From a virus (lineage: Duplodnaviria; Heunggongvirae; Uroviricota; Caudoviricetes), in IMG/VR virus record IMGVR_UViG_2579778660_000001: a stretch of 64,000 nucleotides of DNA. The stretch is one strand, 5' to 3'. A program made the translations under genes and the position numbers. The notes below the pieces were generated by a model. It was not told the DNA's origin. It searched no databases and worked only from the letters and a program-made list of their open reading frames with translations. Positions 25,361-53,311 of this stretch are shown one piece after another; within the stretch, counting starts at the first letter, position 1, and each line of letters opens with the position of its first letter.

Positions 25361-25362
25361 AT

Positions 25363-38963: not shown

Positions 38964-39215
38964 TTATTTTTTGGCTATATCTTCTTTCTGATACACCGGA
39001 TCGCTCCCTTTTGGCAACTGGAGGCTTAACTGCCGGTAGTGCCGTAGCCGTTCCATGAAATAGGCGCGCAGGTTTTCCGGTTGCTCACGGGCCACCTGCT
39101 CTGCAATCACAGGTATATTCAGCCGTTCTTTGTAAGCAACGCCGCTGGCGGCAAGGTCTACGTTCACCTTGTCTCGCTCTTCCTGGCTTTTAGCTGCTAT
39201 ATTTCGATCTGACAC
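38964..39215 (-). CDS. hot: Hot (homologue of DNA polymerase III theta subunit, HolE-like), 83 aa
   Basis: [43 protein letters not shown] parallels E. coli theta (recalled). Confidence 0.75.
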
Positions 39216-39247
39216 AAGAAACCTCCAGGAGTTAGTGGATCAGGCAC

Positions 39248-39598
39248 ATGCACAACAACGTTCTCAATGTTAGCCGTTCAATTCAGACAATCAGAGACTG
39301 CACCAGTGTGGTGGCATCAATCCCATTGCGAAACAGCATAGACGAACTGCAAATTCGTGTATTGAATCTGAATCAGGCTAATAAGCAATTGCGCTTTATT
39401 TTGACGCTGAAAAGTGAAACAGAGGGGATAAAGCACAGCGTAAAAGTATTTTCTGAGGCCATTCTGCTTAATGAGAAGCTCCGGCATCTGGTAAGGCCAG
39501 AACGTCAATATCCTGACGTCCTGGCGCGTGAAAAAGACCTTCTTTCTGAAGTTCAGGATAGGGTGATCGATTTCGTCAAATGCTATCCCCTGCATTGA
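39248..39598 (+). CDS. hypothetical protein, 116 aa
   Basis: Isolated plus-strand ORF; AGGAG 14 nt upstream. Confidence 0.35.
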   Translation: MHNNVLNVSRSIQTIRDCTSVVASIPLRNSIDELQIRVLNLNQANKQLRFILTLKSETEGIKHSVKVFSEAILLNEKLRHLVRPERQYPDVLAREKDLLSEVQDRVIDFVKCYPLH

Positions 39599-39867
39599 GG
39601 GCAGGTGTTCCCTTCCGCAAAGTAGGGAAAACTGCTATCAAGTTCATCACACCATCTGCGATGGTCGTAGCACCAAAACGCCTCCCACGGTGCACGGAAA
39701 TACTTCATCCACCAGGACACTCGATCAGGTATATCTGCTGGTGGCAGTTCTTCTGGCAATAATTTGCCTGATAATTCCCTTTCCGCCCGCGACAGCATTT
39801 TTTTGAGGCTCGCGTTCTCTTTTTCAAGCTCATCTACGCGCACCTGTAATTCAGCTTTCGTTGGCAT
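39583..39867 (-). CDS. hypothetical protein with C-terminal Cys cluster, 94 aa
   Basis: Start re-assigned to MPTKAEL (GAGG RBS; overlaps the upstream stop); CPQC-type zinc-ribbon-like end. Confidence 0.4.
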   Translation of the reverse strand: MPTKAELQVRVDELEKENASLKKMLSRAERELSGKLLPEELPPADIPDRVSWWMKYFRAPWEAFWCYDHRRWCDELDSSFPYFAEGNTCPQCRG

Positions 39868-40789
39868 GGCCCGCCTCATGCTTTTCAGCCACCAGCGGCA
39901 ATAAAGCCCTGGCCATCTTATGAACCAATAGTGCATCAATAATGCCAAGCGTATGCCCCGGCTTAATGTTTAATGCCGCCTCAAGGTGACACCTTTCCAG
40001 GCCACTTTTCTCGGCTTGTTTATGATGATCTGGTGTAATAACGTCGCCCAAAACACGGCTAATTCTTTCTCGTAATTGCTGGGTGCCAGCACACTTGATC
40101 GCTGTATCGTGGAGACGGTTAACCAGTTCGCGATAAACATGCGGCTTAATTCGGATACGTTCACCGGTGACGCCCTTTCCTGGCGCTGGCACCGAACTAT
40201 CCGGAATATCCGGATAGTTGCCAGCCTCGTAAGCTACCCGCAGCCAGTGCATGAATGTTTCAGTGGACACACAACCACAGTCCACATCGATTTTCCCGCG
40301 TTGCTGTTCCAGCCATTGCCCAAAATCCAACCTGTAAGTCTTACTTTCAAGTTCATCACCATTGAACTCGACTTTCTGCGACGCTATGAGAGCTGATTCG
40401 TATTGTTCGCGAGTGACAACTGACTGGTATTCATCGCTATCAAGGTCACCAATTGGAAGCTCAATCTCACAACAAAAATTGCGCCCAAAGAAAGTGTCTT
40501 TTTTGTGGTCTGAGCCAAAAGCAAAAGTCGCGCATGGTGCCATTAAATTGACACTGGGTAGGTAACAATAACTCATTCCATCAGGCCACCCGCCGCACTT
40601 AGGCAGCTCCTTCACTAACAAGTCGATAAGCTTCATTTTTTTATCATCTTTGCAAGCCGCCAAAGCCATTTGGGCAAGTGCCAATACTTCATCTGCCGTA
40701 TATCCAGCACCGTGACCATACATTTCGATACGGGAAATAATCTCTGATATACGCTCTTCAGTGATTCTGGTCATTTCTTTTTGCGCCAT
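39851..40789 (-). CDS. hypothetical protein, 312 aa
   Basis: Shares the ...YRELVN.L.D.A...GT.QLRER... segment with the C-terminus of the DUF4406-like protein (49930-50541). Confidence 0.5.
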   Translation of the reverse strand: MAQKEMTRITEERISEIISRIEMYGHGAGYTADEVLALAQMALAACKDDKKMKLIDLLVKELPKCGGWPDGMSYCYLPSVNLMAPCATFAFGSDHKKDTFFGRNFCCEIELPIGDLDSDEYQSVVTREQYESALIASQKVEFNGDELESKTYRLDFGQWLEQQRGKIDVDCGCVSTETFMHWLRVAYEAGNYPDIPDSSVPAPGKGVTGERIRIKPHVYRELVNRLHDTAIKCAGTQQLRERISRVLGDVITPDHHKQAEKSGLERCHLEAALNIKPGHTLGIIDALLVHKMARALLPLVAEKHEAGHANES

Positions 40790-41145
40790 TTCTTTTCACA
40801 TTCCTTAGTCCATTTTTCAATGTTCATTTTGGCAATATCAGTCATTCCATCACCTAAGAAATACTTTCTCCGGTATGTCTTGCACTTAAACCACACTACA
40901 ACAGCCACCAGCCAGAAAATAAAAGGCCATACAGCAATACCAACGACAGCCGCGATAAAGCCCAATATCCATAAATGAAGCTCTCCAACTTCTGTTTCCG
41001 GCAATATTCTTAAAGAATTAAACAGCAGGCTGAACGAATGGTCGTATGCATTGGCAGTATAAGACATGCAATCCATATAATTAAAGTCATAGCCTGCGGC
41101 TGCCGCCCATAATGGGCGGTCAAGAAAATGTTTTAGTGTCATCAT
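40771..41145 (-). CDS. membrane protein, 124 aa
   Basis: Two hydrophobic helices and a basic C-terminus. Confidence 0.45.
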   Translation of the reverse strand: MMTLKHFLDRPLWAAAAGYDFNYMDCMSYTANAYDHSFSLLFNSLRILPETEVGELHLWILGFIAAVVGIAVWPFIFWLVAVVVWFKCKTYRRKYFLGDGMTDIAKMNIEKWTKECEKKWRKKK

Positions 41146-41151
41146 ATTAAT

Positions 41152-41541
41152 TTAAGGTTCAGACCAGTTATCTTCAATAGCAATGCTTAATCTTTGTAGC
41201 CATTCTGCTAATTTCAGCATTGCTTCTCTTTCGCTTAAACCACGAGGAAAATCATCAAGCGATATTGTTGGCTTGAAGCCCCCGTAATTATCCATTTCAA
41301 CGGTCAGATTTTGCTCCAGTACGGTATTCCTTACGCGGCTATTGTGGCGAAGCAAATATACTGAACGTGATTTATTGGTTTTGTGGTCGAGCTGATGTTC
41401 GGTAAGTATCATCTGGCTTTTGCCATGACTATTACCTCTCCACATACTTACCTCACTTAATAAAACAACTCCATACGTAGTTGATGATTTTTTCCCACGT
41501 AATATAAATCTGCACTCCGGCAGTAAAACCAAAGCCAACAA
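41152..41541 (-). CDS. hypothetical protein (start may be internal)
   Basis: ORF in the operon; no motif. Confidence 0.35.
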   Translation of the reverse strand: MLALVLLPECRFILRGKKSSTTYGVVLLSEVSMWRGNSHGKSQMILTEHQLDHKTNKSRSVYLLRHNSRVRNTVLEQNLTVEMDNYGGFKPTISLDDFPRGLSEREAMLKLAEWLQRLSIAIEDNWSEP

Positions 41542-41623
41542 TTGCTGAAAAAATCAAAACATTTACTTTTGACATTATAAATTTTCTCTCGGTGTCGTAG
41601 GTGATAGCACCATAATTGATAAT

Positions 41624-41875
41624 TTAGTGAGTTAGCAGTTCCATTTTTTGGATGATTTCCGCATGAGCATCATCGTTATCAACACTTAACTCGTTTAATG
41701 CCTCTCGCACCACATCAACTTCTTCTGGTTGGAAGAAATCATCTCGGTAGTCACCAAATAGAACCGAAACAAGCCTGCCACCAGCAACATCAAGATTGGC
41801 GCTAACAGGTGGCTCTTTACCATCCTCAAATTCGACTACAAAAGTTATTTTTCCCATCGTTACCACCAGCGACAA
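41624..41875 (-). CDS. hypothetical small acidic protein
   Basis: Operon context. Confidence 0.35.
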   Translation of the reverse strand: MSLVVTMGKITFVVEFEDGKEPPVSANLDVAGGRLVSVLFGDYRDDFFQPEEVDVVREALNELSVDNDDAHAEIIQKMELLTH

Positions 41876-41939
41876 ATTGAATACAAACCCAGTGCTGCCG
41901 CCATCACAATTCCTACCGTGGTGAATGCTTCAGGCCAGC

Positions 41940-42782
41940 TCATTGATTCACCTCCTGCGGCGGTTCTGGTAGCGGCATCCAGTGGGTTACCTCTTTGAGA
42001 TGCAGGTCTTCGCCGTCGCCGTCATCCCACGTTGGATTGCCATCATCAAACCAGTCGCCATATACGCCAACCTGAGTGTTTGGTATGTTGGGCCAATAGT
42101 TATTTTTGAAATCAGCAGCTAATACATAGCGCTGCTTTTCACCCATTTCCGGCATCCGCTCGCTTACCGGAATCCATTTACCCGGCACGGTAGCGGGTTC
42201 ACTGCCGGGTAGTTGCGGCGCGGCTGCGAGCATGGCCTCGGTTTCCGCAATCAGGTTGTGAGGTAGTTGGCATCCTGCATTTTGCATGCCGTGGCCAAAT
42301 GCCAGCCAGCGCCGAAGCATGTCCGCTGAACCATCCGGAATTACCGGAGAGTTGCCAGCCAGCGCGTTCAACTTGTAAGCCTGGCTTACAGGTTCGGCAC
42401 TATGAAGCATGGCAGCTCGGCAGGCGTTCCAGCCAGATGTTCGCCCAAGCGCGTAAACTTCAGATGGCTCAAGATAATCAATGTCATGCCCGTCCTCATC
42501 GTCGTTCTCAGGTAATGCAGCAGGTACTACCGGTACTGGCGGGGCGGCATAAACAGGAATAACGTCCGATTGCTCTTTATTGCTTTCATCCGTTAAAGCC
42601 CAGAATAATTTTCCAGCCGGATGTTTGAAAATATAAGCAACTGGTTCTGCTTCCAGCGATGCCAGAGCAATTCGTGCCAGTTCTTCCGCTTCTTCTGCTG
42701 GCAGTACAACGTTGCTACCAGGTCCGTATGTTTCGCGCCACTGCTTGATTGTCAGCAGTCGCTCTTTGGTAATAGTGGTCAT
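41940..42782 (-). CDS. DUF551-like phage protein, 280 aa
   Basis: C-terminal ...THWMPLPEPP, the characteristic DUF551 ending (recalled). Confidence 0.45.
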   Translation of the reverse strand: MTTITKERLLTIKQWRETYGPGSNVVLPAEEAEELARIALASLEAEPVAYIFKHPAGKLFWALTDESNKEQSDVIPVYAAPPVPVVPAALPENDDEDGHDIDYLEPSEVYALGRTSGWNACRAAMLHSAEPVSQAYKLNALAGNSPVIPDGSADMLRRWLAFGHGMQNAGCQLPHNLIAETEAMLAAAPQLPGSEPATVPGKWIPVSERMPEMGEKQRYVLAADFKNNYWPNIPNTQVGVYGDWFDDGNPTWDDGDGEDLHLKEVTHWMPLPEPPQEVNQ

Positions 42783-43120
42783 TTGTTAATCCTCAAAACT
42801 TTATGCCCGGGCGCAAAAGCACGCGTTTTGTCTTTGCTTATTCGCCAGCCATCCTTGCGCGCCTCTTTTGCACAGCCAGCCCATGACGTACCTATATACT
42901 CACCGAAGTCTGGCGACTTATATTTGCCATCTGTACACTGGAGGCAGTCACAATAGAGATGCATGGTGTAACTTGCGGCAATAGCCATATCACTCTCCTT
43001 TAGTGCGCAAATGGTTTTTTCCAGCGGTTTTGCGCCGCGCTGGGCTTTTTGCAAAAACCACAATCCATCATCCCGTAATATTTCATCAACCCCATCCGTC
43101 GGTTGCTGAGTCTCACCCAC
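42779..43120 (-). CDS. hypothetical Cys-rich protein (alternative: two coupled small genes, with the distal one starting at the internal ATG after AAGGAGAGTGAT)
   Basis: GTG start without RBS; an internal copy of the junction motif TAAAGGAGAGTGATATGG suggests the real gene is the 69-aa C-terminal part (MAIAASYTMHLYCDCLQC...). Confidence 0.35.
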   Translation of the reverse strand: MGETQQPTDGVDEILRDDGLWFLQKAQRGAKPLEKTICALKESDMAIAASYTMHLYCDCLQCTDGKYKSPDFGEYIGTSWAGCAKEARKDGWRISKDKTRAFAPGHKVLRINK

Positions 43121-43351
43121 TGCCAGACGCCAGGAGCGTTTCTACGAACTAACAGAATCTTTGCTTTACGGTTTTTCATCGCTTTGCTCTCCTGCGTCTC
43201 TTTGCTGCTCGTCGTGCCGCTGCAATACCGGTATGGCGGCGCTTTGGTGCCGGGATGATGTTGTCAGCCATCAGGACATGTGGCTTTGCAATTAGCGCAG
43301 AAGCCCAAAAACGAGTCGGGTACGGTAACAAGCCGATACATGCCACACGCA

Positions 43352-43609
43352 TTACTCACCTCCTTTAATGCGAATGCCAGCGGCGCGGATGGCGTCAGCG
43401 CAATAATCGATAGCGCAGTTGTGTCCTTTGCCGAAATCATCCTCAGCCATCACTTTGTCATCGAGTTTTATCTCGATAGCTGCGCGAGATGCCTGCCATG
43501 CCCTCCATGCCATTTCCGTGGATGAATAAACATACCCGCAATCACCATATACAAGGCTTAAATTTTGCTTTTTCGCGAACTCCAAAAACTGCTTTCTTGA
43601 TTCGTCCAT
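43352..43609 (-). CDS. hypothetical protein, 85 aa, ending ...GIRIKGGE
   Basis: Start re-assigned to MDESRKQ (ATG 2 nt after the upstream stop, RBS GGAGAG embedded in the upstream C-terminal codons). Confidence 0.45.
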   Translation of the reverse strand: MDESRKQFLEFAKKQNLSLVYGDCGYVYSSTEMAWRAWQASRAAIEIKLDDKVMAEDDFGKGHNCAIDYCADAIRAAGIRIKGGE

Positions 43610-43610
43610 A

Positions 43611-44513
43611 TCACTCTCCTTTGATGCGAATACCAGCAAGCCAGTTTCTTATGCCGATATATTCAGCATTCCTGAAACCGCTTTTTACATATATAAATGG
43701 CAAGCGAAGATTGTGACCATTGGCTGCCAGGTAGTCTTTACAACCCTGTTCGGTGAAACAGCAGGTAACGAATTCATCAATATCTTTCACAGCAACGCGC
43801 CGCCATTTTTCTGGTGGCTCTCGAAAGTTTTCGTGAAGTAGTTCGAGACGACGACTTTGGCGTTTATTGGCTTCATTGCCATCTTCATCAACCCAGACAA
43901 TCCGGTCATAGTCATAATCAGCATCAACAACGATTTCGCGCTTTTGATACACACAAAACATAGGGTCTGACGTTATTCGATTATCCTGTGTTCGAATATT
44001 TTCACCGATGATGCCAAACGAATCTGGTGCAGATTTTGTCTGCAACTCTTCGATACGTTCAGCCATCGCAGCACACTCTTCAAAGTTGCTTAATGCTTTT
44101 CGCTCCGATTCAGCGCATTGTTTTTCCAGTTCTGCTATGCGCTTACCTCCATCCGCGATTACTCCCTCGTAATGCTCGCGCTGCTCGTTGAGTTTTGATT
44201 TTGCCGACTCCAGTTGTTTTGTTAGTTCCACAATACGGCAAACATCGTTGATACGCGTTTCCTCTAATGCGTTGATCTCATCCAGTAGTGCCAGTGCAAC
44301 TTTTGGTGGGATAGCCGCGATATAACGGGCATTGGCACTAGCGTTCCTCTGTCCATCAATGCCAGGCCAGTCAATAAAGTATCCGCAATGCCTACCCTCA
44401 GACGTGCGCGCAGGATAAATGCCGTTATGTCCCGGCAAAATATATGCTACCCATTCATCTTGCGTTGCCTGCTCCGCTGCCTCGCGCAACTCCTGATAGT
44501 TAGTTTCACTCAC
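43611..44513 (-). CDS. Ead/Ea22-like protein, 300 aa, ending ...GIRIKGE
   Basis: N-terminus MSETNYQELREAAEQ and coiled coil paralogous to 48635-49120; the C-terminal IKGE codons carry the RBS for the next gene. Confidence 0.5.
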   Translation of the reverse strand: MSETNYQELREAAEQATQDEWVAYILPGHNGIYPARTSEGRHCGYFIDWPGIDGQRNASANARYIAAIPPKVALALLDEINALEETRINDVCRIVELTKQLESAKSKLNEQREHYEGVIADGGKRIAELEKQCAESERKALSNFEECAAMAERIEELQTKSAPDSFGIIGENIRTQDNRITSDPMFCVYQKREIVVDADYDYDRIVWVDEDGNEANKRQSRRLELLHENFREPPEKWRRVAVKDIDEFVTCCFTEQGCKDYLAANGHNLRLPFIYVKSGFRNAEYIGIRNWLAGIRIKGE

Positions 44514-44700
44514 TATCTGCTCCTTCCGCTTTCTCTGCTTTATCCGCCATGATTTCCAGCTTTTGTGCTGCTGATGCCGCTAACATTTGAAATTCTTCAT
44601 CTGTTTCAACTGGAATTGGTACAAACCTGACTCCAATTTGAGCAAGGCTATGCGCCATCTCTAGACTTGCTCTTAACTCTGCTGGTGAGGCTTTATTCAT
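44506..44700 (-). CDS. hypothetical small protein, 64 aa
   Basis: Overlaps the downstream start. Confidence 0.35.
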   Translation of the reverse strand: MNKASPAELRASLEMAHSLAQIGVRFVPIPVETDEEFQMLAASAAQKLEIMADKAEKAEGADSE

Positions 44701-44796
44701 TTGGCTTCCTCCTTCCGATACATCATGATTGCCAGACCTCCCTTTGTAGTAATGCGGATGGTGCTGCCTGGCTCCATGCTCATGCCTTTATCCCAA

Positions 44797-45792
44797 TCAG
44801 TTATTAAACGTGATTACTCCGCGCTCGATGGCGAAGTCAAAAAGCTGGTTAGCGGCTACGTAAAGGCGTATGCCATGTGCTTTTTCCCATGCCCGGACAT
44901 CGTTTTCTGCGCTTCTGGCGCAGTCATCGCAAAGAGGAACAGCCCAGCGGTCGTGTTCGTTTAACGAGCGGGCGCGGTACATGAACGGGTGGTTAACTTT
45001 GCCACCGCATCCGATGCACGGACGAGAAACCACAAACCGGAGATAAGCCGGGCTTTTACCGAGGACCGCTTTTGGTCGGCGCATATAAAGCAGGCCGGAA
45101 TCCTCATCTACAGACAGGTTGACGATCTGCTCTGCGGTTATGTCCACCAGCTCGCGGGTACTGTGCTCCCAGGTGATATCTGATTCTTTCAGCGTACCGG
45201 TAGGGATTTCAGTTTTTGGCTGACAAAATGCAATGCGACCGGCTTCATCTGGCAGCTCATCTTTCAGATTCCGGCGAATGGCCCAAAAAGTGAGTTCAAC
45301 CATACTCAGATCGCGTTCTGGCGGTAGTTTTAACTCGCTCGCAGCCCAGTTCATAACCCAGTTGGCACGATTCAGGGATAACTGGTCGTCCAGCTTGCTG
45401 TACCCCTTCATCATGTATTCCGCATCATGCTTCCAGCACAGGCGAACGGCAGAGCCGTTATAGAAATGAGTGGTTAGCTGGTGGCTGCAATCGCGCTTAT
45501 CGTGCGCCTGGCAATCGTGGATATTGGAACTTACCCAATGAACAAGCGAATCTTCACCGCCCAACGCGTTAAATACGCGCTCGCTTTGAAAAAACGGTTT
45601 CAGAGACTGGTTGGCAACCAGCGAATAATTCAGATCCACTACGCCATCTGGAGTGTTTTCAGCCTGTTCACGCGGAAGTGGGGAGATAATGAAACGGCGA
45701 CCTGCGCCAATGTAGTTACTGGTGGGCTTGTCTACCGGAAAGACAGCCACACCAGCTCCGTTTACGAAATGAGGTGTGATTATTGCACTCAT
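44797..45792 (-). CDS. hypothetical protein with C-terminal Cys4 cluster (CxxC...C..C), 331 aa
   Basis: Long ORF; an operator-like site in its upstream region. Confidence 0.5.
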   Translation of the reverse strand: MSAIITPHFVNGAGVAVFPVDKPTSNYIGAGRRFIISPLPREQAENTPDGVVDLNYSLVANQSLKPFFQSERVFNALGGEDSLVHWVSSNIHDCQAHDKRDCSHQLTTHFYNGSAVRLCWKHDAEYMMKGYSKLDDQLSLNRANWVMNWAASELKLPPERDLSMVELTFWAIRRNLKDELPDEAGRIAFCQPKTEIPTGTLKESDITWEHSTRELVDITAEQIVNLSVDEDSGLLYMRRPKAVLGKSPAYLRFVVSRPCIGCGGKVNHPFMYRARSLNEHDRWAVPLCDDCARSAENDVRAWEKAHGIRLYVAANQLFDFAIERGVITFNN

Positions 45793-45833
45793 AATGTATA
45801 CCGACTCTGTTTTGTTCCGAGCGGTAAAATAAT

Positions 45834-45866
45834 ATGTTAGAAAACTAAAATCAACGTTCTAACGTA
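45834..45866 (+). promoter_or_regulatory. operator-like pair (ATGTTAGAAAACTAAAA plus inverted half-site CGTTCTAACG)
   Basis: Motif copy with partner forming GTTAGAA-N15-TTCTAAC. Confidence 0.5.
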
Positions 45867-45890
45867 ATTTTGAGTGCGTAAATGATTTGA

Positions 45891-46583
45891 TCAGACTTTA
45901 AGCTGCCCTCCCTTCACCTGCATTAGCGTCAGATTTCCGCAAAAAACCGCGCCCGTGTCTATGTAGTGCTGATTCCAGTATGCTTTTGGTCTTCGTACCG
46001 GTGTGTGCCCAAAGATAAAGCGATCTGCGCCTGTGATTTCTCCACCAATGCCATCTATCGAATCACCGACGCGACTGCGCGACCAGACAACATCAAAAAG
46101 CGACACATCCTTACCGAACTGGTACTCTCCACCTGGATAGTCGGCATGGGCTATAACGATAGTTTCATGCCCGGTGTTCAGCTCAATGATATAGGGCAGA
46201 CGCTTTACCAGCTCCACCAGCGCCCAGGCTAATATTTCCTGATCAGTGTCCAGCATGAAGAACCATTGTCCGCCATTCATTAGCCAGTTATTCACGTTGC
46301 CATCAGGACTTAACGCATCAAGCATCAACCGCTCATGGTTCCCCATTACTGCCCTGAACCAGGGCATCTGCAATAGTTCCAGACATTCGACATTTTCAGT
46401 ACCGCGATCGATAAGGTCGCCAACCGATATCAGTAAATCCTGCGCCGGGTCAAAATCCACACGATGGAGTTCGGACATCAGTCTGGTGTAGCAACCATGC
46501 AGATCACCAACAACCCATATGTTTCTATAGCCAGAACCATCAATACGGCTATATAAATTCACTTCATGCAGAGCCTGGGTCAT
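45891..46583 (-). CDS. Ser/Thr protein phosphatase (lambda-PPase-type calcineurin-like metallophosphatase)
   Basis: Motifs GDLHG, GDLIDRG and GNHE. Confidence 0.8.
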
Positions 46584-46891
46584 GCGGCAACCTTCTCACG
46601 CAGCCAGATACAAACCGGACCATCTTCAGTGTCATGAATAGAGCCAACAAACCAGCCTTCACCCTCTGGTCGCTCCGGTTCCCAGGCGGCAATATCGGGA
46701 CCAGCTGCGTCCAGATCAAAATCATCTTCATCCATACTGCGAATAGTCCACTGAAGATTATTTTCCTTCATCCAGGCGTCAAATTCCTCAGTGGAAATAT
46801 ATTCACGGCCTGCGCAAAACTTTTCATACTCCGGATGTGTCCAGCAGCCATATTCATCACGTTCTACCGGCATTTCTTTAATTGTGCTCAC
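46580..46891 (-). CDS. hypothetical acidic protein, 103 aa
   Basis: ATGA-type overlap. Confidence 0.4.
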
Positions 46892-47112
46892 TCTTCATCC
46901 TCCAAGTCGGCAACGGCCTCCATCACATCAGAACCGCGAATAAACTCAAAAGCACGGCAAGCCATTTCAAACACCTGTTGTTCTTGCGGATGCGGTGACT
47001 CCCAATACTTAAAACCAGGTCGATGCTCGTAACCCATCATGGAATAAAAATCGCCAGCAAGTTCAATCGCGGCATCAACAAGTTCGCGATTTGTCATCGT
47101 TTGTTCTGTCAT
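46888..47112 (-). CDS. hypothetical small protein, 74 aa
   Basis: Operon context. Confidence 0.35.
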   Translation of the reverse strand: MTEQTMTNRELVDAAIELAGDFYSMMGYEHRPGFKYWESPHPQEQQVFEMACRAFEFIRGSDVMEAVADLEDEE

Positions 47113-47417
47113 TTTGTTTTCTCCTGTCTGAACATCACTATCATCAGGTCGCCTTTTGTCGCTATCCTCGCTGTTGTGCCTGGTTCAATGCTGCCAAGTT
47201 CAAATGCGTCATAGAACGCTTCTAATGCCTTCTGGCGTAGTTCCTGTTTGCGCCGTTTTTTCCACTGTTTCAGGAAAATGGAACCCAGCCATCGCCATGT
47301 ACGGGACATGATGAAAAACCAACCGAGAAGTGCCAGACCGGTATTCAGGAGCGTATCGATCGTTATTGTCGTGTCGATATTCACTGGCTGCTTCCGTTGC
47401 GAATCTGTTCCGCCCAT
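47109..47417 (-). CDS. small membrane protein, 102 aa
   Basis: Hydrophobic helix; overlaps neighbours. Confidence 0.35.
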   Translation of the reverse strand: MGGTDSQRKQPVNIDTTITIDTLLNTGLALLGWFFIMSRTWRWLGSIFLKQWKKRRKQELRQKALEAFYDAFELGSIEPGTTARIATKGDLMIVMFRQEKTK

Positions 47418-48313
47418 TCTTCAAGGGATTTCTCCGCATATTCACCGGACAGGCCATCAAGCGGATGCGGTTCATTAGCCAACTCTTCTTTCGCTGACAA
47501 AATCATGCGTGTAACGTCGAAAACTTCACGCAAAGACTTATTGATAAATCCGTGATTGAACGCAGCAGCAAGACGGCTTGCGGTGTAGTTAATCCCCTCG
47601 TTGCGTGCCTCCGCACGTACTTCAGCCAGGAAAGCGTCGGTTGCTGGGGTGTCGATATTAGGCAGAAGCGCATAATCGCAAATCGTATCGATCGCAGGAT
47701 CACAACAGTCATCCTCGTTGCGTGGTCGTTCGCCAACCTTCGTTGACGATTGCATGATGATTCCCCAGCAAATACTATCGACCTCTTCGCTCCATCCATC
47801 GCAAGCATCACCGCGATAGTCGTCGATTGCAGCCTCAGCCGATTCGATAGCTTCCTCAGCAGTTTTGTGCCATTCGAAATTATGCTCAGAGCCATATGAG
47901 AAATATGAATGTCCCGCCTTCAGCCCCGCATTCTCCGCCGCCAGCGCCGCGCAATTACCCTCCAGCTCTGCAATGCGCTGTTTTGCGGCATCAAGTTCAA
48001 TCGATAATTTTTCCAACTGCTCTTTATGCTTCTTGTATTCCTGATATGCGTGCCAGGACTGACCTTTGCGCACACTATCAGTAATATCAGTAATCTGTTC
48101 TGGTGTTAGCGTGGTCAGTGGCTGTGCTGGGAAAATCAGCACTTTCCCGGAATCCCAATCAAAACCAGCGTGAATTGACTGAACCTCAACTGAAGGTGTT
48201 GAACCAATGCTGCCAGGCGAATGAACAACGATCGTTACATCCATATCGCGACGATGGCTGTGGTTGTTGGACAAAATACGATTCACCAACTCAGAAAATT
48301 TGGAAAATTTCAT
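47381..48313 (-). CDS. Ea22-like protein, about 310 aa
   Basis: Start re-assigned to MKFSKFS (ATGA overlap with the upstream stop); C-terminal domain paralogous to 49117-49626 (TPATD.FL.EV..EAR.EG...). Confidence 0.5.
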
Positions 48314-48633
48314 GCTGATTCCCTTTGATCTTCCTGGATAATGTTGTTGCAATCTTTCACGCACTCGTTGCAGATGAAAGCGTTGTCCCCAGCAATTAAC
48401 TTTTTAACGGTGTGCTGGGATTTGTTGCAGAAGCTGCAATAAAGCGTTGGACTGGCTGATACGGATGGTGCGCCAGATGTCAGCCGCGCGATGTCGTTCT
48501 TGCGACGCAATATCACACGGCTGCACTCAACCAGCATCTCCGGGGATATACCCTCCTCCGTGGCGAGCGCCTCCAGACGTTCGAGCAAGCGAAATACTTT
48601 TTCCTGGGTGATTGCATAATGCGATGTGGTCAT
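48310..48633 (-). CDS. small protein with ClpX-type N-terminal zinc-binding domain (C4 zinc finger), 107 aa
   Basis: [27 protein letters not shown] parallels the ClpX ZBD [27 protein letters not shown] (recalled); start re-assigned to MTTSHY (RBS from the upstream IKGE codons). Confidence 0.55.
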
Positions 48634-48634
48634 C

Positions 48635-49120
48635 TCACTCTCCTTTGATGCGAATGCCTGTTGCAATGCTGTTTATGATGCTGTCAGTGCATGGGGTAGA
48701 AAGCTGGGCATCTCCAGCAATTTTCATGACATCAACATCTGCATATCGAATACCGAGGTGTATCAGACCGGCTATACCTGACTTAAGCCGAGCATTTTCC
48801 ATAAACAGATCCTTTGCCCGCTGTTTTTCTGCCTCAAGCTCAACGCGCAACTTCCCTACCGTTAGCGCAATATCCTCGTTCTCCTGGTCGCGGCGTTTGA
48901 TGTACTGCTGGTTTCTTTCCCGTTCATCCAGTAGTGCCAGCACGGTTTCTGGTCCGGCCAGAAATTTGAAGGCGTTGAGCGCATCAATATCCACACCGTA
49001 ATCTTTAAGTTCCTGTTCACTTAACAAATCATCATCAGCTGGCAACATTAACAGGCGTTCCATTGCTGGAATTGCACGTTCCGCCGCCTCACGCAGTGCC
49101 TGATAATCAATCTTGCTCAT
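48635..49120 (-). CDS. Ead/Ea22-like coiled-coil protein, 161 aa, ending ...GIRIKGE
   Basis: Paralogue of 43611-44513. Confidence 0.45.
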
Positions 49121-49626
49121 TGGATGACTCCTTTACGAAGCTGTTCGGCGATATCTTCGAGAACGCCATCAGAGAATGAGCGGTCAAAATCGCCTTCCGG
49201 CGCATTAGCCATAAACTCAGTAGAGGTAAGAATCATCCGGGCAATATCCGCGGCGTTCTTCGCAGTATCATCAATAAAACCAGCTACCCAGGCAGCCAGC
49301 ATTCTGTTCGCCACAAAGTAAGCGCCCTCCTTGCGTGCTTCAGTCTTCACTTCATCCAGGAAAGTGTCGGTCGCAGGAGTAGTTTTTTGTGGTGATAGGG
49401 CGATACGAATTGTTTCAAGAGCTGGATCTATTTCCACTGTTGGCACCTTGATAAAACCAAGCTGCACGCCATTCATAATGAACGTGCGGCGATCCTCACA
49501 TATCGCCTTCAGTCTCGCATTCTCCGCAGCCAGCGCCGCGCGCTCTTTCTCAAGTCGGGAAATTTCCGTTACATACTCAGCGTTACGCTCTGCCAGTTGT
49601 GCGGGCGTTAAACCTTCAGACTTCAT
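49117..49626 (-). CDS. Ea22-like C-terminal-domain protein, 169 aa
   Basis: Paralogue of the C-terminus of 47381-48313. Confidence 0.45.
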   Translation of the reverse strand: MKSEGLTPAQLAERNAEYVTEISRLEKERAALAAENARLKAICEDRRTFIMNGVQLGFIKVPTVEIDPALETIRIALSPQKTTPATDTFLDEVKTEARKEGAYFVANRMLAAWVAGFIDDTAKNAADIARMILTSTEFMANAPEGDFDRSFSDGVLEDIAEQLRKGVIQ

Positions 49627-49933
49627 ACACTCTCCTTTCGAAATAAACGTACTGATTAATCATGCCCAGGGGCATTTCGAGTTTTTCTGCGATCTCACGG
49701 CGGGGAACACCACACCGATGAAGCTGCCGTGCCAGTTCTATATCGCCCTGCCGGTATTTGGCTGACGGGTGAAAGTCTCCTTTCAGAATCATGCAGATCC
49801 GCAGTTGCCGCGCTTTGGTTCTGACAGCACTACCGGTACGCCCGATCAGCCTCCCAATACTCTCGACTGTCATAGTCCCGGCGCACTGGCGGAGTATCAT
49901 GATTTCTGCCCTTCCCCATCCCCGCCAGCTCAC
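49616..49933 (-). CDS. small helix-turn-helix regulator
   Basis: HTH-like segment TVESIGRLIGRTGSAVRTKARQL; start may be internal (MILRQC). Confidence 0.4.
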   Translation of the reverse strand: MSWRGWGRAEIMILRQCAGTMTVESIGRLIGRTGSAVRTKARQLRICMILKGDFHPSAKYRQGDIELARQLHRCGVPRREIAEKLEMPLGMINQYVYFERRVYEV

Positions 49934-50541
49934 ACAGAACTCCTTCTAACCAAAAGAACGCCATCTTCAGAAACAACGTTGCAGGACTTCAGGTAATTCA
50001 TTGCCTCTTTCGGTAATGGATTCTTTGGATCGGCGTTTGCCAGGGATTTCGATAACCTCATGATAAATTTGATCATTACCTTCTGGCGGAGCTTGTGCTC
50101 ATGAGATAAAGACAGGTAATAGGAAATGGTATGGGCTAAACGCTCACGAAGCTGTTCTGTGCCGTGATATACAGCAGCGATATCACGCAGTGCATTGACC
50201 AGTTCCCGGTAAATATGCGGAGCAACCTGGCATTCAATGTTGGTTGGTGACTCATAAATTACATTCAGCCCCAGCTTTTTAGCCAGCTCGTGCTCTGCAC
50301 GAGCGCCAACTGATTCCTCCCACCCCTTGAGCAAATAGACCGCATTAGCCGAACGCACCATTGCAAGGCAAATATCCATGTATTCGCTCTGGCAGAGGCC
50401 AGCAGGTAACAGCGCCGGATTCATAACAATATGCCCTACCTCCATCAGCTCTTTTGCTTTCGAAAAAAACGCTGTGCGGTTGTAGTCGGGATAACCAGTC
50501 ATCGGACCCGCGATGTAAATTTTCATAATGCGTTTTGACAT
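49930..50541 (-). CDS. DUF4406-like protein (nucleoside 2-deoxyribosyltransferase-like fold), about 203 aa
   Basis: N-terminal KIYIAGPMTGYPDYN...VMNPA; start re-assigned to MSKRIMKIY (TGATG coupling to an upstream 51-aa peptide gene). Confidence 0.5.
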   Translation of the reverse strand: MSKRIMKIYIAGPMTGYPDYNRTAFFSKAKELMEVGHIVMNPALLPAGLCQSEYMDICLAMVRSANAVYLLKGWEESVGARAEHELAKKLGLNVIYESPTNIECQVAPHIYRELVNALRDIAAVYHGTEQLRERLAHTISYYLSLSHEHKLRQKVMIKFIMRLSKSLANADPKNPLPKEAMNYLKSCNVVSEDGVLLVRRSSV

Positions 50542-50696
50542 CAAAGTTTCCCCAGGAACGTTACGCAAAAGTTGATGAGAGCAAAGAGTTCAATGCCCAG
50601 CTCAAACAACGCCAGGACAGTGAAAAACAGGACATATAGCAACCCAATTTCTGTATCGGATTGCTGGTGGATTGCACTAATTGCGACAAGCATCAT
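50541..50696 (-). CDS. possible 51-aa hydrophobic leader peptide (first gene of the leftward early operon)
   Basis: AGGAGG RBS; ORF MMLVAISAIHQQSDTEIGLLYVLFFTVLALFELGIELFALINFCVTFLGKL; below the track size threshold. Confidence 0.3.
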   Translation of the reverse strand: MMLVAISAIHQQSDTEIGLLYVLFFTVLALFELGIELFALINFCVTFLGKL

Positions 50697-50735
50697 GACC
50701 TCCTGATATAGCGTCTGAAAAAAGTATCTTCATTT

Positions 50736-50768
50736 TGTGTTAGAAAATCAATTTTGATTTTCTAACAT
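50736..50768. promoter_or_regulatory. palindromic double operator (GTTAGAAAATCAA-tt-TTGATTTTCTAAC) in the divergent promoter region between ref and the leftward early operon
   Basis: Perfect 13-bp inverted arms; P1 ref is known to be repressor-controlled. Confidence 0.65.
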
Positions 50769-50812
50769 GTTTGATCAACCATAGCGGCTATGTAGACAAA
50801 CCGGGTATTTCT

Positions 50813-51388
50813 ATGAAGCAAAGCTATTGGGAGAAACAGACACAAAAAGCCCTGCAAAAACTGGCTGATCCGAAATGGCGGGAGGAACAAAGGGCAAAGC
50901 GTCTTCAGCAAGCTCAACGCCAGCAGCAGCGTGCGCGAGAAAAAGCCGCATCGCCTGAATATCGGCAAAAGAAAATTGAAAAAGCGAAGCAATATGAACA
51001 GCGAAGAAAAGAGAAGGCCGCTTCTGCTCCTGTCAAAAAAACTCGCGCGTCACGCGGCCTGAAAGGCAGAACACTCACAGCAGATGAGCGCCGGATACAA
51101 ACTGCCATCGGTGCTCTCCCCTGCATTGCCTGCCATATGCACGGACAGCATAGCCCTGTGGTATCCCTGCACCACATCTTCGGAAGAACAGCAGAGAACG
51201 CGCATAAATACGTCCTCCCTTTGTGTAAATGGCACCATCAACACGCAGCGCCAGCAGAGATCCGCGAGCAATACCCCTGGTTGGTTCCTGTTCATGCTGA
51301 TGGAAAAATAGGCGGTAAAGCAGATTTCAGGCGGCACAATGCTGATGAAATGACGTTGTATCAGATGGCGATTGAATTGACGAATTAG
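50813..51388 (+). CDS. ref: Ref (recombination enhancement function; HNH-type RecA-dependent nuclease)
   Basis: Basic N-terminal tail with ADPKWREEQ and C-terminal HNH-like Cys/His core CIACHMHGQH...HHIFGR...LCKWHH; alternative TTG start at 50771. Confidence 0.65.
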   Translation: MKQSYWEKQTQKALQKLADPKWREEQRAKRLQQAQRQQQRAREKAASPEYRQKKIEKAKQYEQRRKEKAASAPVKKTRASRGLKGRTLTADERRIQTAIGALPCIACHMHGQHSPVVSLHHIFGRTAENAHKYVLPLCKWHHQHAAPAEIREQYPWLVPVHADGKIGGKADFRRHNADEMTLYQMAIELTN

Positions 51389-51399
51389 TTTTCTAACAT
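51383..51399 (-). promoter_or_regulatory. operator-like site ATGTTAGAAAACTAATT (exact consensus copy)
   Basis: Immediately after the ref stop. Confidence 0.5.
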
Positions 51400-51719
51400 T
51401 TTAAGTTGAATTATAAATTTCTCCGATGTACATTCACTACCGATTGGCACACCGGTCAACTTTTTGAGACAAACTGTATAGTTTTTCGTATTATTGCCGC
51501 CGCCATACCTATGGCGGTGCAATATAGGTGGCTGAAAAGCCCCCGTTGACTCACGGTGTTCCAGCCTTTATTGCGCCGCCACCAGACCGTGGAACAGTCG
51601 ATGGCGGCTCCGAAAGCAAGGAGTCACTACACTATGAACAGCTACTGTCTTTTCCCGTCACTCGTTGTCCGCCACTCACGCGATAATCTGCATTCTTTAC
51701 TCGCGCTGGGGGTGTCAAA

Positions 51720-51887: not shown

Positions 51888-51992
51888 AATACTGACTTTT
51901 GCGCCCTGGCATTATCGTGGGGTATATTTCTACGGCACCTTAGAAAAACGGGTGCCGGGATTGGAACCTCACGCGGTAGCTCCTTAACTTAG

Positions 51993-52190
51993 TCAAAGGA
52001 GGCTGCCAATATCGCTACTATCCCCACCCCAACTCATTCTGAATTTATCTGGCGTTTCTATTCCTGCCAAAAACACCTGTATATCTGCGTCATGGCTGCA
52101 ACCGAAGCAGAAGCTCGTTCATACCTTCCCCTGGCGGAACGGGGCGTAATTGGTGATAAACAGATACTGGGAAACAGTGGAACTACATGA
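51993..52190 (+). pseudogene. Icd-like paralogue lacking a canonical start codon
   Basis: Translation SEFIWRFYSCQKH...AATEAEARS parallels 12799-13023; AAGGAGG RBS is followed by an ATC codon, and the first in-frame ATG is at 52092. Confidence 0.3.
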
Positions 52191-52274
52191 GGCGGGAGTA
52201 ATTCGTGACCTGATGGAGAATTCCGTTCCCCGCCGCTATCGTGCAGGGAACGGCATCTCCGTGGTTAAAGGTGT

Positions 52275-52667
52275 TTAAAGCTCACCTGCGCGCTGTTTTT
52301 CAAGCACAGATTTAACATTTGGCGCTTTCCCTTTAAAAGAATGGAAAGTGCCACATTTTTCTGTTTTAACCTCGCGCAGAGCTTCGCCGTCGGCGTTCTG
52401 CCATTGATGGGATAATGTCATATCACCGCGAGAAGGAACATCCAGCGAGTACAGCGTGTAAGTTCCCCCCATCTCCGCATACTCCTGGAACACATAGCTC
52501 ATTACGTCAGATTCAGTTTTTCGGTGTGCGTTATCAACCTTATTCCCATTCAGAAATATGGCATCTGGATAGATTTTTATATCAAACCGACCGCACTTAA
52601 CTTGTAAATCTCCGGCGCTCGCGATCAAAGGGAAAGACGCCAGTAAAGCAATAGCCAATCTTTTCAA
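52275..52667 (-). CDS. secreted protein with signal peptide, 130 aa
   Basis: N-terminal MKRLAIALLASFPLIASA signal peptide. Confidence 0.5.
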   Translation of the reverse strand: MKRLAIALLASFPLIASAGDLQVKCGRFDIKIYPDAIFLNGNKVDNAHRKTESDVMSYVFQEYAEMGGTYTLYSLDVPSRGDMTLSHQWQNADGEALREVKTEKCGTFHSFKGKAPNVKSVLEKQRAGEL

Positions 52668-52687
52668 TTCTGCCTCCGCTGCGTAAC

Positions 52688-53311
52688 TTATTGCCCGTAT
52701 TTTTTACACCATTGCTCTGCCATTTGTTTGGCTAAAGGCCCGGCTACTGCACTGTATTCTGCTGTTTTACTTTGCACACATGAAGCAGATGGTTTTTTAT
52801 TTCGCTGCTCGGTTAGTTTGCGCTCATAAGCCATCATGCTATCGAACCCGGCAATATCACTTTGGCGAAGCATTCCCTTTTTAACCAAAAATTGCTGCCC
52901 CTCTGGCACCAACGCAAGCATAAAAAGAGGTTGCAATAACTCACCTAATCCTTGCTGGCGATACACTTCGAATTGCTGCCATCCCTGACTTAATCTGGAA
53001 AGAGTATCTTTGGTTGAATAACCTGTTTTTGTTATAGCTTTGTCCGTCAGATATGCTGTATATGCAAAAACGCAAAAGTCAGTTTTACCAATAAACTGAG
53101 TTCCAACAGGCCGTAATGGAATGCCCTCCCTCTTGCAAAAGTCCATAATGGCCGCTTGTGAATGAACTCCACCAGCGTTATTCATAACCTGCTGCCCTGC
53201 CCTGAATTGTGCAGGTAACGCAGTTGCATTGGCAGTATTAGCAGATACGCATCCCAACATAGCCGCGAGCGCGGCCCCTAAAGCCCTTAACTTCACTACA
53301 CCATCCTTCAT
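52688..53311 (-). CDS. secreted or periplasmic protein with signal peptide, 207 aa
   Basis: Signal-peptide-like N-terminus; several Cys residues. Confidence 0.5.
   Translation of the reverse strand: MKDGVVKLRALGAALAAMLGCVSANTANATALPAQFRAGQQVMNNAGGVHSQAAIMDFCKREGIPLRPVGTQFIGKTDFCVFAYTAYLTDKAITKTGYSTKDTLSRLSQGWQQFEVYRQQGLGELLQPLFMLALVPEGQQFLVKKGMLRQSDIAGFDSMMAYERKLTEQRNKKPSASCVQSKTAEYSAVAGPLAKQMAEQWCKKYGQ

Follow-up and report, generated by a model that had tools for sequence, protein, structure and literature searches.

A block of early accessory genes, probably repressor-gated and arranged as two tandem units, in a D6-like phage-plasmid prophage

The block of interest lies in a 64,000-nucleotide stretch of DNA (the window) that matches phage D6 at 89–98% identity across most of its length; judged by its sequence, the window is a D6-like (P1-related) phage-plasmid, a plasmid prophage of E. 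coli. The minus strand carries an unbroken chain of 26 genes (including two tiny membrane-peptide ORFs) running from position 50693 to 39583, which is the counterpart of D6 orf88–orf105. The chain span is 97.6% coding: 15 of the 25 junctions are overlaps of 1–19 bp, eight are gaps of 1–48 bp, and the remaining two are gaps of more than 50 bp. The leftward chain ending at about 39583 that was described in the initial annotation is thus real, with its genes back to back and mostly overlapping. The position given there for the block's start, 39248, is not part of it, as it takes in a convergent plus-strand gene that lies outside the leftward chain. The genes and regulatory features discussed below are as follows.

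50813–51388, plus strand: ref, RecA-dependent nuclease gene (124.6 bits), divergent from the same operator region as g1
50739–50766: bivalent operator O1 (predicted), two inverted 17-mers with a 6-bp overlap, between the divergent ref and g1
50723–50751, minus strand: putative sigma-70 promoter of g1–g11 (−35 TTGATT at 50751–50746, inside O1; 17-nt spacer; −10 GATACT at 50728–50723)
50541–50693, minus strand: g1, 50-aa membrane peptide with a hydrophobic segment, D6 orf88 homologue (phrog_8890)
49930–50541, minus strand: g2, N-terminal DUF4406 domain, nucleoside 2-deoxyribosyltransferase-like (120.8 bits; phrog_355, 3e-44)
49616–49933, minus strand: g3, conserved 105-aa putative DNA-binding protein (weak Sigma70_r4_2; phrog_323, 4e-26)
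49117–49626, minus strand: g4, coiled-coil protein (Ea22-related PHROGs), C-terminal domain shared with g7
48635–49120, minus strand: g5, Ea22-like (Ead_Ea22, 114.7 bits), N-terminus 54% identical to lambda Ea22
48310–48633, minus strand: g6, ClpX-type C4 zinc-binding domain at residues 62–106 (63.4 bits)
47381–48313, minus strand: g7, 310-aa modular coiled-coil protein of the Ea22 kind (PHROG 368/614)
46580–47384, minus strand: g8 (DUF4752), g9 and g10, small proteins forming a conserved trio (profile and PHROG matches)
45891–46583, minus strand: g11, Ser/Thr phosphatase of the lambda NinI/P1 Ppp type (Metallophos), 62% identical to lambda NinI and 88% to P1 Ppp
45836–45863: bivalent operator O2 (predicted), internal to the chain, within the 98 bp that separate g11 from g12
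45826–45854, minus strand: putative sigma-70 promoter (TTGATT, 17-nt spacer, TATTTT) serving g12 and the distal cargo and overlapping O2
44797–45792, minus strand: g12, DUF968, P1 PdcB homologue (38% identity), 95–99% conserved among D6-like elements
42779–44700, minus strand: g13–g18, exo-xis-like cargo comprising g13 (Orf63 homologue, DUF1382), g14 (Ea22-like) and the small g15–g18
39583–42782, minus strand: g19–g24, low-GC distal cargo comprising g19 (DUF551), g19b, g20, g20b, g21, g22, g23 and g24
41860–41943, minus strand: g19b, 27-aa TM peptide within the distal cargo
41453–41575, minus strand: g20b, 40-aa TM peptide within the distal cargo
39248–39598, plus strand: convergent gene, D6 orf106 homologue (phrog_2594), sharing 16 bp with the 3' end of g24; outside the operon
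32353–33387, minus strand: c1 repressor homologue, intact, 97% identical to D6 C1 and 20% to P1 C1

Every gene of the block has a PHROG family match, nearly all of them to families without an assigned function, as had been anticipated. Profile matches recover the contents that had been named earlier (DUF4406, Ead_Ea22, the ClpX finger, Metallophos and DUF551) and add DUF968, DUF4752 and DUF1382. The proposed HTH regulator, g3, fared less evenly: its match to PHROG 323 (annotated 'transcriptional regulator', 4e-26) speaks for the assignment, while the Pfam Sigma70_r4_2 match reaches only 19.2 bits against a cutoff of 25.7. Among relatives g3 is 90–99% identical and g4 is variable. The C-terminal module of g2 is shared with g23 and with P1 PmgT/U. 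The membrane proteins of the block are g1, g22 and the peptides g19b and g20b.

One gene, g6, stands out among its neighbours as a near-copy of the ClpX zinc-binding domain. Residues 62–106 align with the N-terminal domain of ClpX (PDB 1OVX, 2DS5; E = 1e-14), 26 of 39 positions are identical to the E. coli protein, and both CxxC pairs are retained. Unlike ClpX, g6 is phage-encoded, has an unrelated N-terminal region of 60 residues, and contains no AAA+ ATPase module. Proteins of this type are rare among sequenced phages; in 14 of 15 IMG/VR loci g7 follows g6, and the fifteenth locus ends before g7.

A presence/identity matrix among relatives divides the block into a conserved scaffold (g1–g12) and shuffled cargo (g13–g24), the distal half behaving as a variable accessory region. 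In P1-like phage-plasmids, the stretch from pmgT to humD has been listed as hypervariable (PMC9603915). Within the cargo, g13 is 75% identical to lambda Orf63, g14 matches Ead_Ea22/lambda Ea22, and g18 is a small Cys-rich protein; an Stx phage has the counterparts of these three and of g19 in matching order within its exo-xis region.

The closest known arrangement is that of D6 itself (NC_050154, 76.7–84.8 kb), where orf88–orf105 occupy the same site between ref and hot/humD/phd-doc; D6-like plasmid prophages of E. coli and Salmonella carry the same block. The D6 block has the same strand logic and both operators, and its g1–g3, g6 and g8–g12 proteins are 73–99% identical to those described here. 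However, only 51% of the block DNA matches D6: g4, g5 and g7 are different alleles, and g13–g16 and g19–g22 are absent. No complete E. coli genome covers at least 80% of the region (the best reaches 70%), and one IMG/VR contig shows 99–100% protein identity across g1–g13.

Similar blocks of small, nonessential genes are found in P1: pmgN-pmgO-pmgP-ppp-pmgQ (Oppp/Op83), pmgR-pmgS (Op86a,b) and pmgT-pmgU-pmgV (OpmgT/Op88). Upstream of each, 17-bp C1 operators overlap sigma-70 promoters, and these operons share with our block the phosphatase (88% identity) and a PmgT/U-related domain. Gene order and content differ in that here ppp sits beside the pdcB homologue, with ref as divergent neighbour. 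The lambda/Stx exo-xis region (orf60a-orf63-orf61-orf73-ea22 plus variable genes) likewise has Orf63 and Ea22-type proteins in common with the block; g13, g14, g18 and g19 are colinear with their counterparts in an Stx phage, and the two share an identical 21-nt ea22 3' end/SD junction. Both are repressor-controlled early leftward units (for our block, by prediction) that combine a conserved block with a variable set. Unlike the exo-xis region, the block does not lie between exo and xis, has no pL/N antitermination context, yields no detectable homologues of orf60a, orf61 or orf73/TraR, and sits alongside genes of the nin-region type (NinI phosphatase) and of the P1 type.

Directly upstream of the chain lies a real palindrome, placed by the initial annotation near 50736–50768. 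It consists of 28 bp at 50739–50766, GTTAGAAAATCAATTTTGATTTTCTAAC, in which 13 of 14 arm positions match; the window contains a single copy, and 100 shuffles yielded none. Its two 17-mers occupy 50739–50755 (minus strand) and 50750–50766 (plus strand). The motif core, TTTTCTAAC, is present in nine copies in the window against 0.65 expected, a number reached by none of 100 shuffles. In D6 as in the window, the motif precedes c1 (here at 33398–33414, just upstream of the c1 homologue), ref, pmgS, icd-ant and hrdC-dmt, and a copy with one mismatch lies upstream of lpa. The P1 record annotates C1 operators at c1, pmgR-pmgS, ppp, pmgT and lpa; P1 ref, a lytic gene, and dmt are reported to be under C1 control (PMC4713147). 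At three of the motif sites, two inverted copies overlap by 6 bp and together span 28 bp, precisely the layout of P1 Obanab and Oc1ab. The sequence itself differs from the P1 operator, ATTGCTCTAATAAATTT, with only about half of the consensus positions in common, and identity between the repressors is just 20%. A LexA box was considered as the identity of the motif and rejected.

O1 and O2 are present in D6 and in four E. coli plasmids, and are kept in all IMG/VR D6-like loci that cover their positions (13 of 13 and 11 of 11, respectively), despite differing cargo. Repressor gating, as claimed in the initial annotation, is well supported by comparison: the motif occurs at c1 and at homologues of C1-controlled P1 operons, shows the bivalent geometry of P1 (17 + 17 bp, 6-bp overlap), overlaps promoter-like hexamers and is kept in the relatives; O1 and O2 are accordingly predicted to be operators of the element's own C1.

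The view that the block is one operon of about 20 genes holds in part: the chain is contiguous, but the presence of O2 and a promoter-like site between g11 and g12 argues for two tandem operator-promoter units with their boundary there. Each putative promoter matches the consensus at 8 of 12 positions, and both were therefore missed by a generic promoter scan with a threshold of 9 of 12. The block's other gaps showed no further promoter-like site, and no terminator was found marking the end of either unit.

The scheme that follows builds on the established anatomy, homologies, motif statistics and conservation of the block, but is inferred wherever it concerns binding by C1, the activity of the promoters, the timing of expression or the function of any protein. 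In the lysogen, the C1 homologue would be bound at O1 and O2, each overlapping −35 and spacer sequences of a putative leftward promoter of the sigma-70 type, O1 also facing the divergent ref. Upon infection or induction the repressor would be lost, and g1–g11 and g12–g24 would be transcribed leftward, with polymerase probably running on past the end of the first unit into the second and translation coupled along the chain by the 1–19-bp start/stop overlaps. By analogy with P1 and lambda, expression would be early; that the genes are early and non-structural is well supported by their sequence relationships. The scaffold comprises (i) the first unit, encoding the membrane peptide and the DUF4406, DNA-binding, Ea22-type, ClpX-finger, DUF4752 and phosphatase proteins, and (ii) g12 (DUF968/PdcB). 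The distal part would be interchangeable cargo, largely an exo-xis-type set, traded with lambdoid and Stx prophages. The products are probably dispensable host-interaction factors, rather than virion or replication components.

The initial annotation saw anti-defence or takeover cargo here, a reading that serves only as a heuristic for this block. Could the cargo instead consist mostly of inhibitors of bacterial immune systems (R-M, CBASS, Thoeris, retrons), expressed at once on entry? This possibility overlaps with the explanation above and differs solely in the roles given to the proteins. The genes are small, early and nonessential; the distal half is a variable segment between conserved genes, the kind of pattern by which counter-defence genes of enterobacterial phages have been sought (bioRxiv 10.1101/2023.04.06.535777); and the DUF4406 deoxyribosyltransferase-like fold could act on nucleotide signals. 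However, the searches made, including a PADLOC defence-family search without a match, revealed no block gene with a demonstrated anti-defence homologue; the characterized homologues (Ea22, Orf63, exo-xis) reportedly affect lysogenization and induction; g1–g12 are conserved rather than rapidly turned over; and phages of the P1 family already have, outside this block, injected proteins dedicated to anti-restriction (in D6, homologues of darA, darB, ddrA, ddrB, hdf and ulx). We regard an anti-defence island as possible but doubtful.

The remaining alternatives are less probable still. That the palindrome serves a regulator other than C1 (g3 autoregulation or a host factor), leaving the block outside immunity control, is suggested by g3 itself, a conserved putative HTH protein whose gene belongs to the unit, and by the divergence of the motif from the P1 C1 consensus. 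Nevertheless, the same motif precedes c1 and several P1-C1-type operons far from g3, it has the bivalent layout of the C1 operators in P1, and it is not a LexA box; we consider this unlikely. Slightly less plausible again is expression of the genes in the prophage, from unrepressed internal promoters, as lysogenic-conversion (moron) genes that benefit the host rather than the lytic cycle. Such cargo is frequent in phage-plasmid variable regions (PMC9603915), and the low-GC segment at 40–42 kb is apparently a recent acquisition; against this, the other gaps lack promoter-like sites, the genes appear translationally coupled to their upstream neighbours, and neither profile searches nor PADLOC found resistance, virulence or defence families in the block. 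Finally, the historical P1 names pmgT/U/V ('putative morphogenetic') and the 84% identity of the g23 C-terminus to the P1 PmgT/U region could point to late or morphogenetic functions. We judge these highly improbable, given that P1 pmgT/U/V are nonessential, no structural-protein family match exceeds threshold, and a search of the region for a late promoter of the P1 type (−22 box AGTnACTT plus −10) came up empty, although the last is a weak test.

Overall, the region is probably the early accessory block of a D6-like prophage, organized as two tandem units, each controlled by the C1-type repressor that the element itself encodes. Since the arrangement is already known from P1, D6 and lambda, the block is a well-preserved but ordinary example of small, non-structural accessory genes under a repressor, and not a new system. 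In P1, ppp, pmgT/U/V and gp107 (pdcB) are dispensable for lytic growth (PMC10695390), and for lambda Ea22, Orf63 and the exo-xis region the reported effects are on host physiology and on the choice between lysis and lysogeny, not a block on defence systems (PMC7093339, PMC8614690). As at least 20 of the proteins are without known function, the extension of such a role to the block draws on a few lambda homologues; by this analogy, the products most likely tune host physiology and the outcome of the lysis-lysogeny decision or of induction.

The block consists of 26 consecutive minus-strand genes running from 50693 to 39583: 24 ORFs with phage homologues (g1-g24) and two tiny hydrophobic ORFs (g19b and g20b). 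The coding share of this span is 97.6%; overlaps of 1-19 bp occur at 15 of the 25 junctions, often as ATGA or GTGA, and gaps of more than 50 bp are found at two places only. The initial annotation had described a single leftward operon starting from the palindrome. The unbroken gene chain stands, but an internal operator (O2, discussed below) would divide it into two units, g1-g11 and g12-g24. The left edge, which had been set at 39248, has to be moved: at that position lies a convergent gene on the plus strand (39248-39598), which is outside the chain and overlaps g24 at the 3' end of the latter. The two tiny minus-strand ORFs (41860-41943, 27 aa; 41453-41575, 40 aa) plug what had looked like gaps and are start/stop-coupled to the adjoining genes; the RefSeq plasmid AR_0119 has no annotation in the equivalent stretches. 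Plus-strand ORFs of 100-144 aa within the block were rejected as shadows of the minus-strand genes, because all of the latter have strong PHROG matches and the GC skew is negative throughout.

Every gene of the chain has a strong PHROG match, nearly all of them labelled 'unknown function'. The domains named in the initial annotation (DUF4406, Ead_Ea22, zf-C4_ClpX, Metallophos and DUF551) are indeed present and are confirmed by Pfam, which gives the following assignments.

Pfam domains in the gene chain
g2: DUF4406
g5 and g14: Ead_Ea22
g6: zf-C4_ClpX
g8: DUF4752
g11: Metallophos
g12: DUF968
g13: DUF1382
g19: DUF551

The weakest label is that of g3 as an 'HTH regulator': the Pfam match is sub-threshold, but a PHROG transcription-regulator family is matched at 4e-26.

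Comparison with other elements identifies the window as a D6-like plasmid prophage of the P1 family. Phage D6 is the best phage match to 39000-51500 (megablast; 51% of the query covered, 94% identity), followed by the P1-like phages RCS47, P1, SJ46 and P7; Stx-converting and phiV10-type phages match over short stretches, at 91-94% identity. Among complete E. coli genomes, the best matches to the same query are plasmids of ~90 kb, with a query coverage of at most 70%; the block's combination of cargo genes (g13-g24) was not found in the complete E. coli genomes of the collection (best coverage 70%). In a local blastn comparison the whole window aligns with D6 in reverse orientation, at 89-98% identity across most of its length. 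The block corresponds to D6 orf88-orf105, flanked by ref at one end and by hot, humD and phd-doc at the other end, and one IMG/VR contig encodes g1-g13 proteins that are 99-100% identical.

Several features around the block were recorded along the way. The stretch 51964-53253 is without D6 homology and stands in place of the D6 icd/ant module; it carries two ORFs on the minus strand (52275-52667, 130 aa; 52688-53311, 207 aa) whose N-termini resemble signal peptides, the longer ORF having a possible lipobox. Rfam matches at 12546-12751, 25285-25435 and 27454-27526 correspond to C4 antisense RNA with a1/b1 targets (immI-type immunity, as in P1) and three tRNA genes. In the E. coli AR_0119 plasmid (locus L002, 2333-3820), a group II intron reverse transcriptase/maturase gene lies between humD and hot, adjoining the block.

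The palindrome reported at the head of the chain is real: GTTAGAAAATCAATTTTGATTTTCTAAC occupies 50739-50766 (O1) and is unpaired at its two central positions only. The window contains it a single time, and 100 shuffles gave no occurrence. The outer nine bases of each arm, TTTTCTAAC, form a core that is present in nine copies in the window against 0.65 expected, a count that 0 of 100 shuffles reached, and the sites have a longer, asymmetric consensus in common (a/t-TTAG-TTTTCTAAC-A). In addition to single sites, the core forms three inverted pairs of exactly 28 bp each, at 50739-50766, 45836-45863 (O2) and 61200-61227. This geometry is identical to that of the bivalent C1 operators of P1: in the P1 RefSeq record, C1 operators are annotated as 17-mers, and Obanab and Oc1ab are inverted 17-mer pairs with a 6-bp overlap, spanning 28 bp. 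As with P1-type C1 operators, the window holds asymmetric 17-bp sites, single or in 28-bp inverted pairs; at the two leftward sites, O1 and O2, these overlap sigma-70-type promoter-like sites.

The distribution of the sites is likewise that of a P1-type regulon, with operators upstream of c1 and of early operons. In D6, the motif is found in the same places, namely immediately ahead of c1, in the ref-orf88 interval, between ppp and the pdcB homologue, and upstream of pmgS, of icd-ant and of hrdC-dmt; mapping through D6 places a one-mismatch copy upstream of lpa in the window. The C1 operators annotated in the P1 RefSeq record lie at c1, pmgR-pmgS, the ppp operon, pmgT and lpa, and P1 ref and dmt have been reported as C1-controlled lytic genes (PMC4713147). 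The third bivalent operator of the window, at 61200-61227, is upstream of the hrdC-dmt homologues. A single copy at 51381-51397, kept in all relatives, starts in the last codons of ref, ends just beyond its stop codon and precedes small plus-strand ORFs (the D6 orf86/85 region).

A candidate for the cognate repressor is encoded by an intact 345-aa ORF (32353-33387) that is 97% identical to D6 C1. The operator sequence is not that of P1: TTTTCTAAC agrees with the P1 consensus ATTGCTCTAATAAATTT at about half of the consensus positions, a difference attributable to the divergence of the repressors, since D6 C1 is only ~20% identical to P1 C1 (20.8%, E = 2e-8). The element would so belong to a D6-type specificity group, and not to the P1/P7 immunity group. 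On position, geometry and conservation, we read the palindrome as a putative bivalent D6-type C1 operator.

The second operator, O2 (45836-45863), sits in the 98 bp that separate g11 (phosphatase) from g12 (DUF968). A generic promoter scan with a threshold of 9/12 found no site at either operator; relaxing the threshold to 8/12 yielded two operator-embedded promoter-like sites.

Promoter-like sites at the operators (both minus strand)
O1: -35 TTGATT at 50751-50746, 17-nt spacer, -10 GATACT at 50728-50723
O2: -35 TTGATT at 45854-45849, 17-nt spacer, -10 TATTTT at 45831-45826

In both cases the -35 element and the spacer are covered by the operator, and all other gaps of the block lack a comparable site. 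D6 and four E. coli plasmids retain both operators; among IMG/VR D6-like loci covering the respective position, O1 is present in 13 of 13 and O2 in 11 of 11. The arm towards the leftward genes is invariant, and the opposite arm of O1 varies and reads GTTAGATATT in most relatives. The divergent ref gene is likewise faced by O1. Terminator-like hairpins are at chance level (18 against 13.1 ± 3.4 expected) and none is intergenic; at the convergent junction of g24 with the plus-strand gene, the RNA fold is not unusually stable (z = -1.23), so no clear terminator can be assigned there. No match to the P1 late promoter (-22 box AGTnACTT) was found in the region, in a weak test given that the seven window-wide matches are about the chance level. 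The simplest model is that two tandem repressor-gated promoters, at O1 and O2, would drive the block, with probable read-through from the first unit (g1-g11) into the second (g12-g24).

Comparison with D6 and the four plasmids separates the block into a scaffold (g1-g12) and a cargo region (g13-g24). Within the scaffold, g1-g3, g6 and g8-g12 are found in all or nearly all elements at 69-100% protein identity (g6 is absent from one), while g4, g5 and g7 are Ea22-type coiled-coil proteins that occur as divergent alleles with common N- or C-terminal modules. The cargo genes form a presence/absence patchwork between conserved flanks (g12 on one side, hot/humD on the other), the hallmark of an accessory region. 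In P1-like phage-plasmids, the stretch from pmgT to humD counts among eight hypervariable regions (PMC9603915).

Part of this cargo is of lambdoid origin. The g13 protein shares 75% identity with lambda Orf63 and also matches the entry for the NMR structure of Orf63 (PDB 8DSB, E = 4.5e-22), and the N-termini of g5 and g14 match lambda Ea22. In Stx phage Lys19259Vzw, the exo-xis region just downstream of exo contains homologues of g13, g14, the g19 N-terminus, g18 and the g19 C-terminus, in that order, with DNA identity of up to 97% over 598 bp. Other proteins resemble those of P1: g12 is 38% identical to PdcB, and the g23 C-terminus is 84% identical to the PmgT/U region. A ~50-residue module (H[IV]YRELVN.L.D.A....GT.QLRER) is found in g2 (residues ~100-154; gene 49930-50541) and in g23 (residues ~208-261; gene 39851-40789), and also in the P1 PmgT/U and D6 orf104 proteins, as a mobile domain.

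Two sequence features may mark how the cassettes were exchanged. The block holds two to three copies of the 21-nt sequence ATTCGCATCAAAGGAGAGTGA, and lambda ea22 has the identical sequence at its 3' end (locus L006, 9848-9868). These 21 nt comprise the codons for the conserved ...IRIKGE tail with which Ea22 proteins end, their stop codon and the Shine-Dalgarno sequence of the gene that follows.

Copies of ATTCGCATCAAAGGAGAGTGA in the block
48635-48655
43611-43631
42990-43010
43351-43378 (weaker copy)

Homology breakpoints between relatives fall on this sequence, at 48634, 43611 and about 43000, making it a plausible recombination joint for cassette exchange. The second feature is the 96-bp gap between g12 and g13 (44701-44796), which encodes ...MEPGSTIRITTKGGLAIMMYRKEEAK*, which is what remains of the 3' end of a DUF4752 gene (cf. 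the tail of g8); its stop codon still overlaps the g13 ATG. This remnant is most readily read as the scar of a cassette exchange.

By similarity, g11 encodes a NinI/Ppp-type Ser/Thr phosphatase: it scores 59.5 bits against Metallophos (Pfam cutoff 21.5), matches phrog_246 at 8e-109, and shares 62% identity with lambda NinI and 88% with P1 Ppp. The DUF4406 domain of g2 is related to nucleoside 2-deoxyribosyltransferases (PHROG 355, 3e-44) and is widespread in phages (591 records); because the PDB sequence search gave only a marginal match to such an enzyme (E = 0.34), the assignment rests on Pfam and PHROG. For g12, 19 homologues were collected and an AlphaFold2 model was built (mean pLDDT 59.7), which is confident only at residues ~60-180; a Foldseek search with it against the PDB gave no match with E below 0.8. 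The 'HNH endonuclease' label that g12 carries in PHROG and RefSeq is annotation only. An HNH-type nuclease core common to g12 and Ref was considered and is unproven, the BLASTP match between the two proteins being not significant (E = 0.12).

The scaffold protein g6 (48310-48633, minus) has at its C-terminal end a domain very close to the N-terminal zinc-binding domain (ZBD) of E. coli ClpX: 26 of 39 residues are identical, PDB 1OVX is matched at E = 1e-14, and the Pfam zf-C4_ClpX score is 63.4 bits (cutoff 27). The NCBIfam search returned the ClpX domain as its only match, and g6 scores 45.9 bits against the ClpX equivalog, far under the 359-bit cutoff. The AAA+ ATPase module is absent, and an identification of g6 as ClpX was rejected in favour of a ZBD-only protein. 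Such proteins are rare in sequenced phages (29 records), with full-length g6 in D6-like elements only and partial matches in the P2-like P88. In relatives, g6 precedes a g7-type gene in every locus that reaches that far, and follows either an Ea22-type gene or g3.

Judging by the role known for this domain, a protein with the ZBD and no ATPase could act as a competitor for ClpX adaptors or substrates; in vitro, free ZBD is a competitor, and ClpXP degrades Phd and UmuD'. It is conceivable, though we think it unlikely, that g6 is a phage-captured decoy of the substrate/adaptor-docking domain of ClpX that rewires ClpXP during induction or, more broadly, that at least one of the cargo genes of unknown function is a new counter-defence factor. 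Under such a decoy model, g6 would be produced as soon as repression is lifted, from a conserved site next to genes for Ea22-type coiled-coil proteins; it would (i) titrate ClpX adaptors or ZBD-dependent substrates, or (ii) heterodimerise with ClpX N-domains, and the resulting shift in ClpXP proteolysis might, for example, stabilise ClpXP-sensitive proteins of the element, such as the Phd antitoxin and the UmuD'-like HumD. A literature search on DUF4406, the other DUF names and ClpX-finger phage proteins found nothing useful. A wider anti-defence role of the block, as suggested by its accessory-region position, is a prior expectation and not a finding: variable phage accessory regions are, as a general claim, enriched in counter-defence genes (bioRxiv 10.1101/2023.04.06.535777), and the ten proteins scanned against PADLOC defence families, including the eight longest, gave no match. 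Plaque formation by P1 does not require ppp, pmgT, pmgU, pmgV or gp107 (pdcB) (PMC10695390); by analogy, this points to the block as a set of dispensable early host-interaction genes.

Taken as a whole, the block is the D6-lineage version of known arrangements: in P1, the groups of small nonessential genes that C1 controls, and in lambdoid phages, the exo-xis accessory region under repressor control. By analogy, it would work like both. With respect to the P1 C1 operons, it is a member by repressor family, operator geometry and operator distribution, and differs in operator sequence. With respect to the exo-xis region, it is not a member by location or by full gene set. Instead of the exo-xis interval under pL, it occupies the interval from ref to hot/humD of a plasmid prophage, where exo, bet, xis and int are not adjacent; from the conserved exo-xis block orf60a-orf63-orf61-orf73-ea22 it contains Orf63 (g13) and Ea22 (g5, g14), and tblastn against lambda found no orf60a, orf61 or orf73 in the block.

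The main value of this analysis is housekeeping, in that an 11-kb stretch of 'hypothetical proteins' becomes D6-lineage C1-type accessory operons fused with lambda-type exo-xis cargo. Worth keeping are the internal operator O2, the D6-type operator consensus, the ea22-tail recombination joint and the ClpX-domain protein. The TTTTCTAAC core, in 17-mers and 28-bp pairs, provides a usable putative operator definition for D6-type immunity. With ~26 early genes, the block is a compact, naturally regulated and screenable set, in which the ClpX-domain protein g6 is a specific, testable candidate. Finally, identity of up to 97% over about 0.6 kb and the conserved junction at the ea22 3' end document exchange of DNA between plasmid prophages and integrated Stx/lambdoid prophages, which bears on the movement of accessory genes among E. 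coli prophages.
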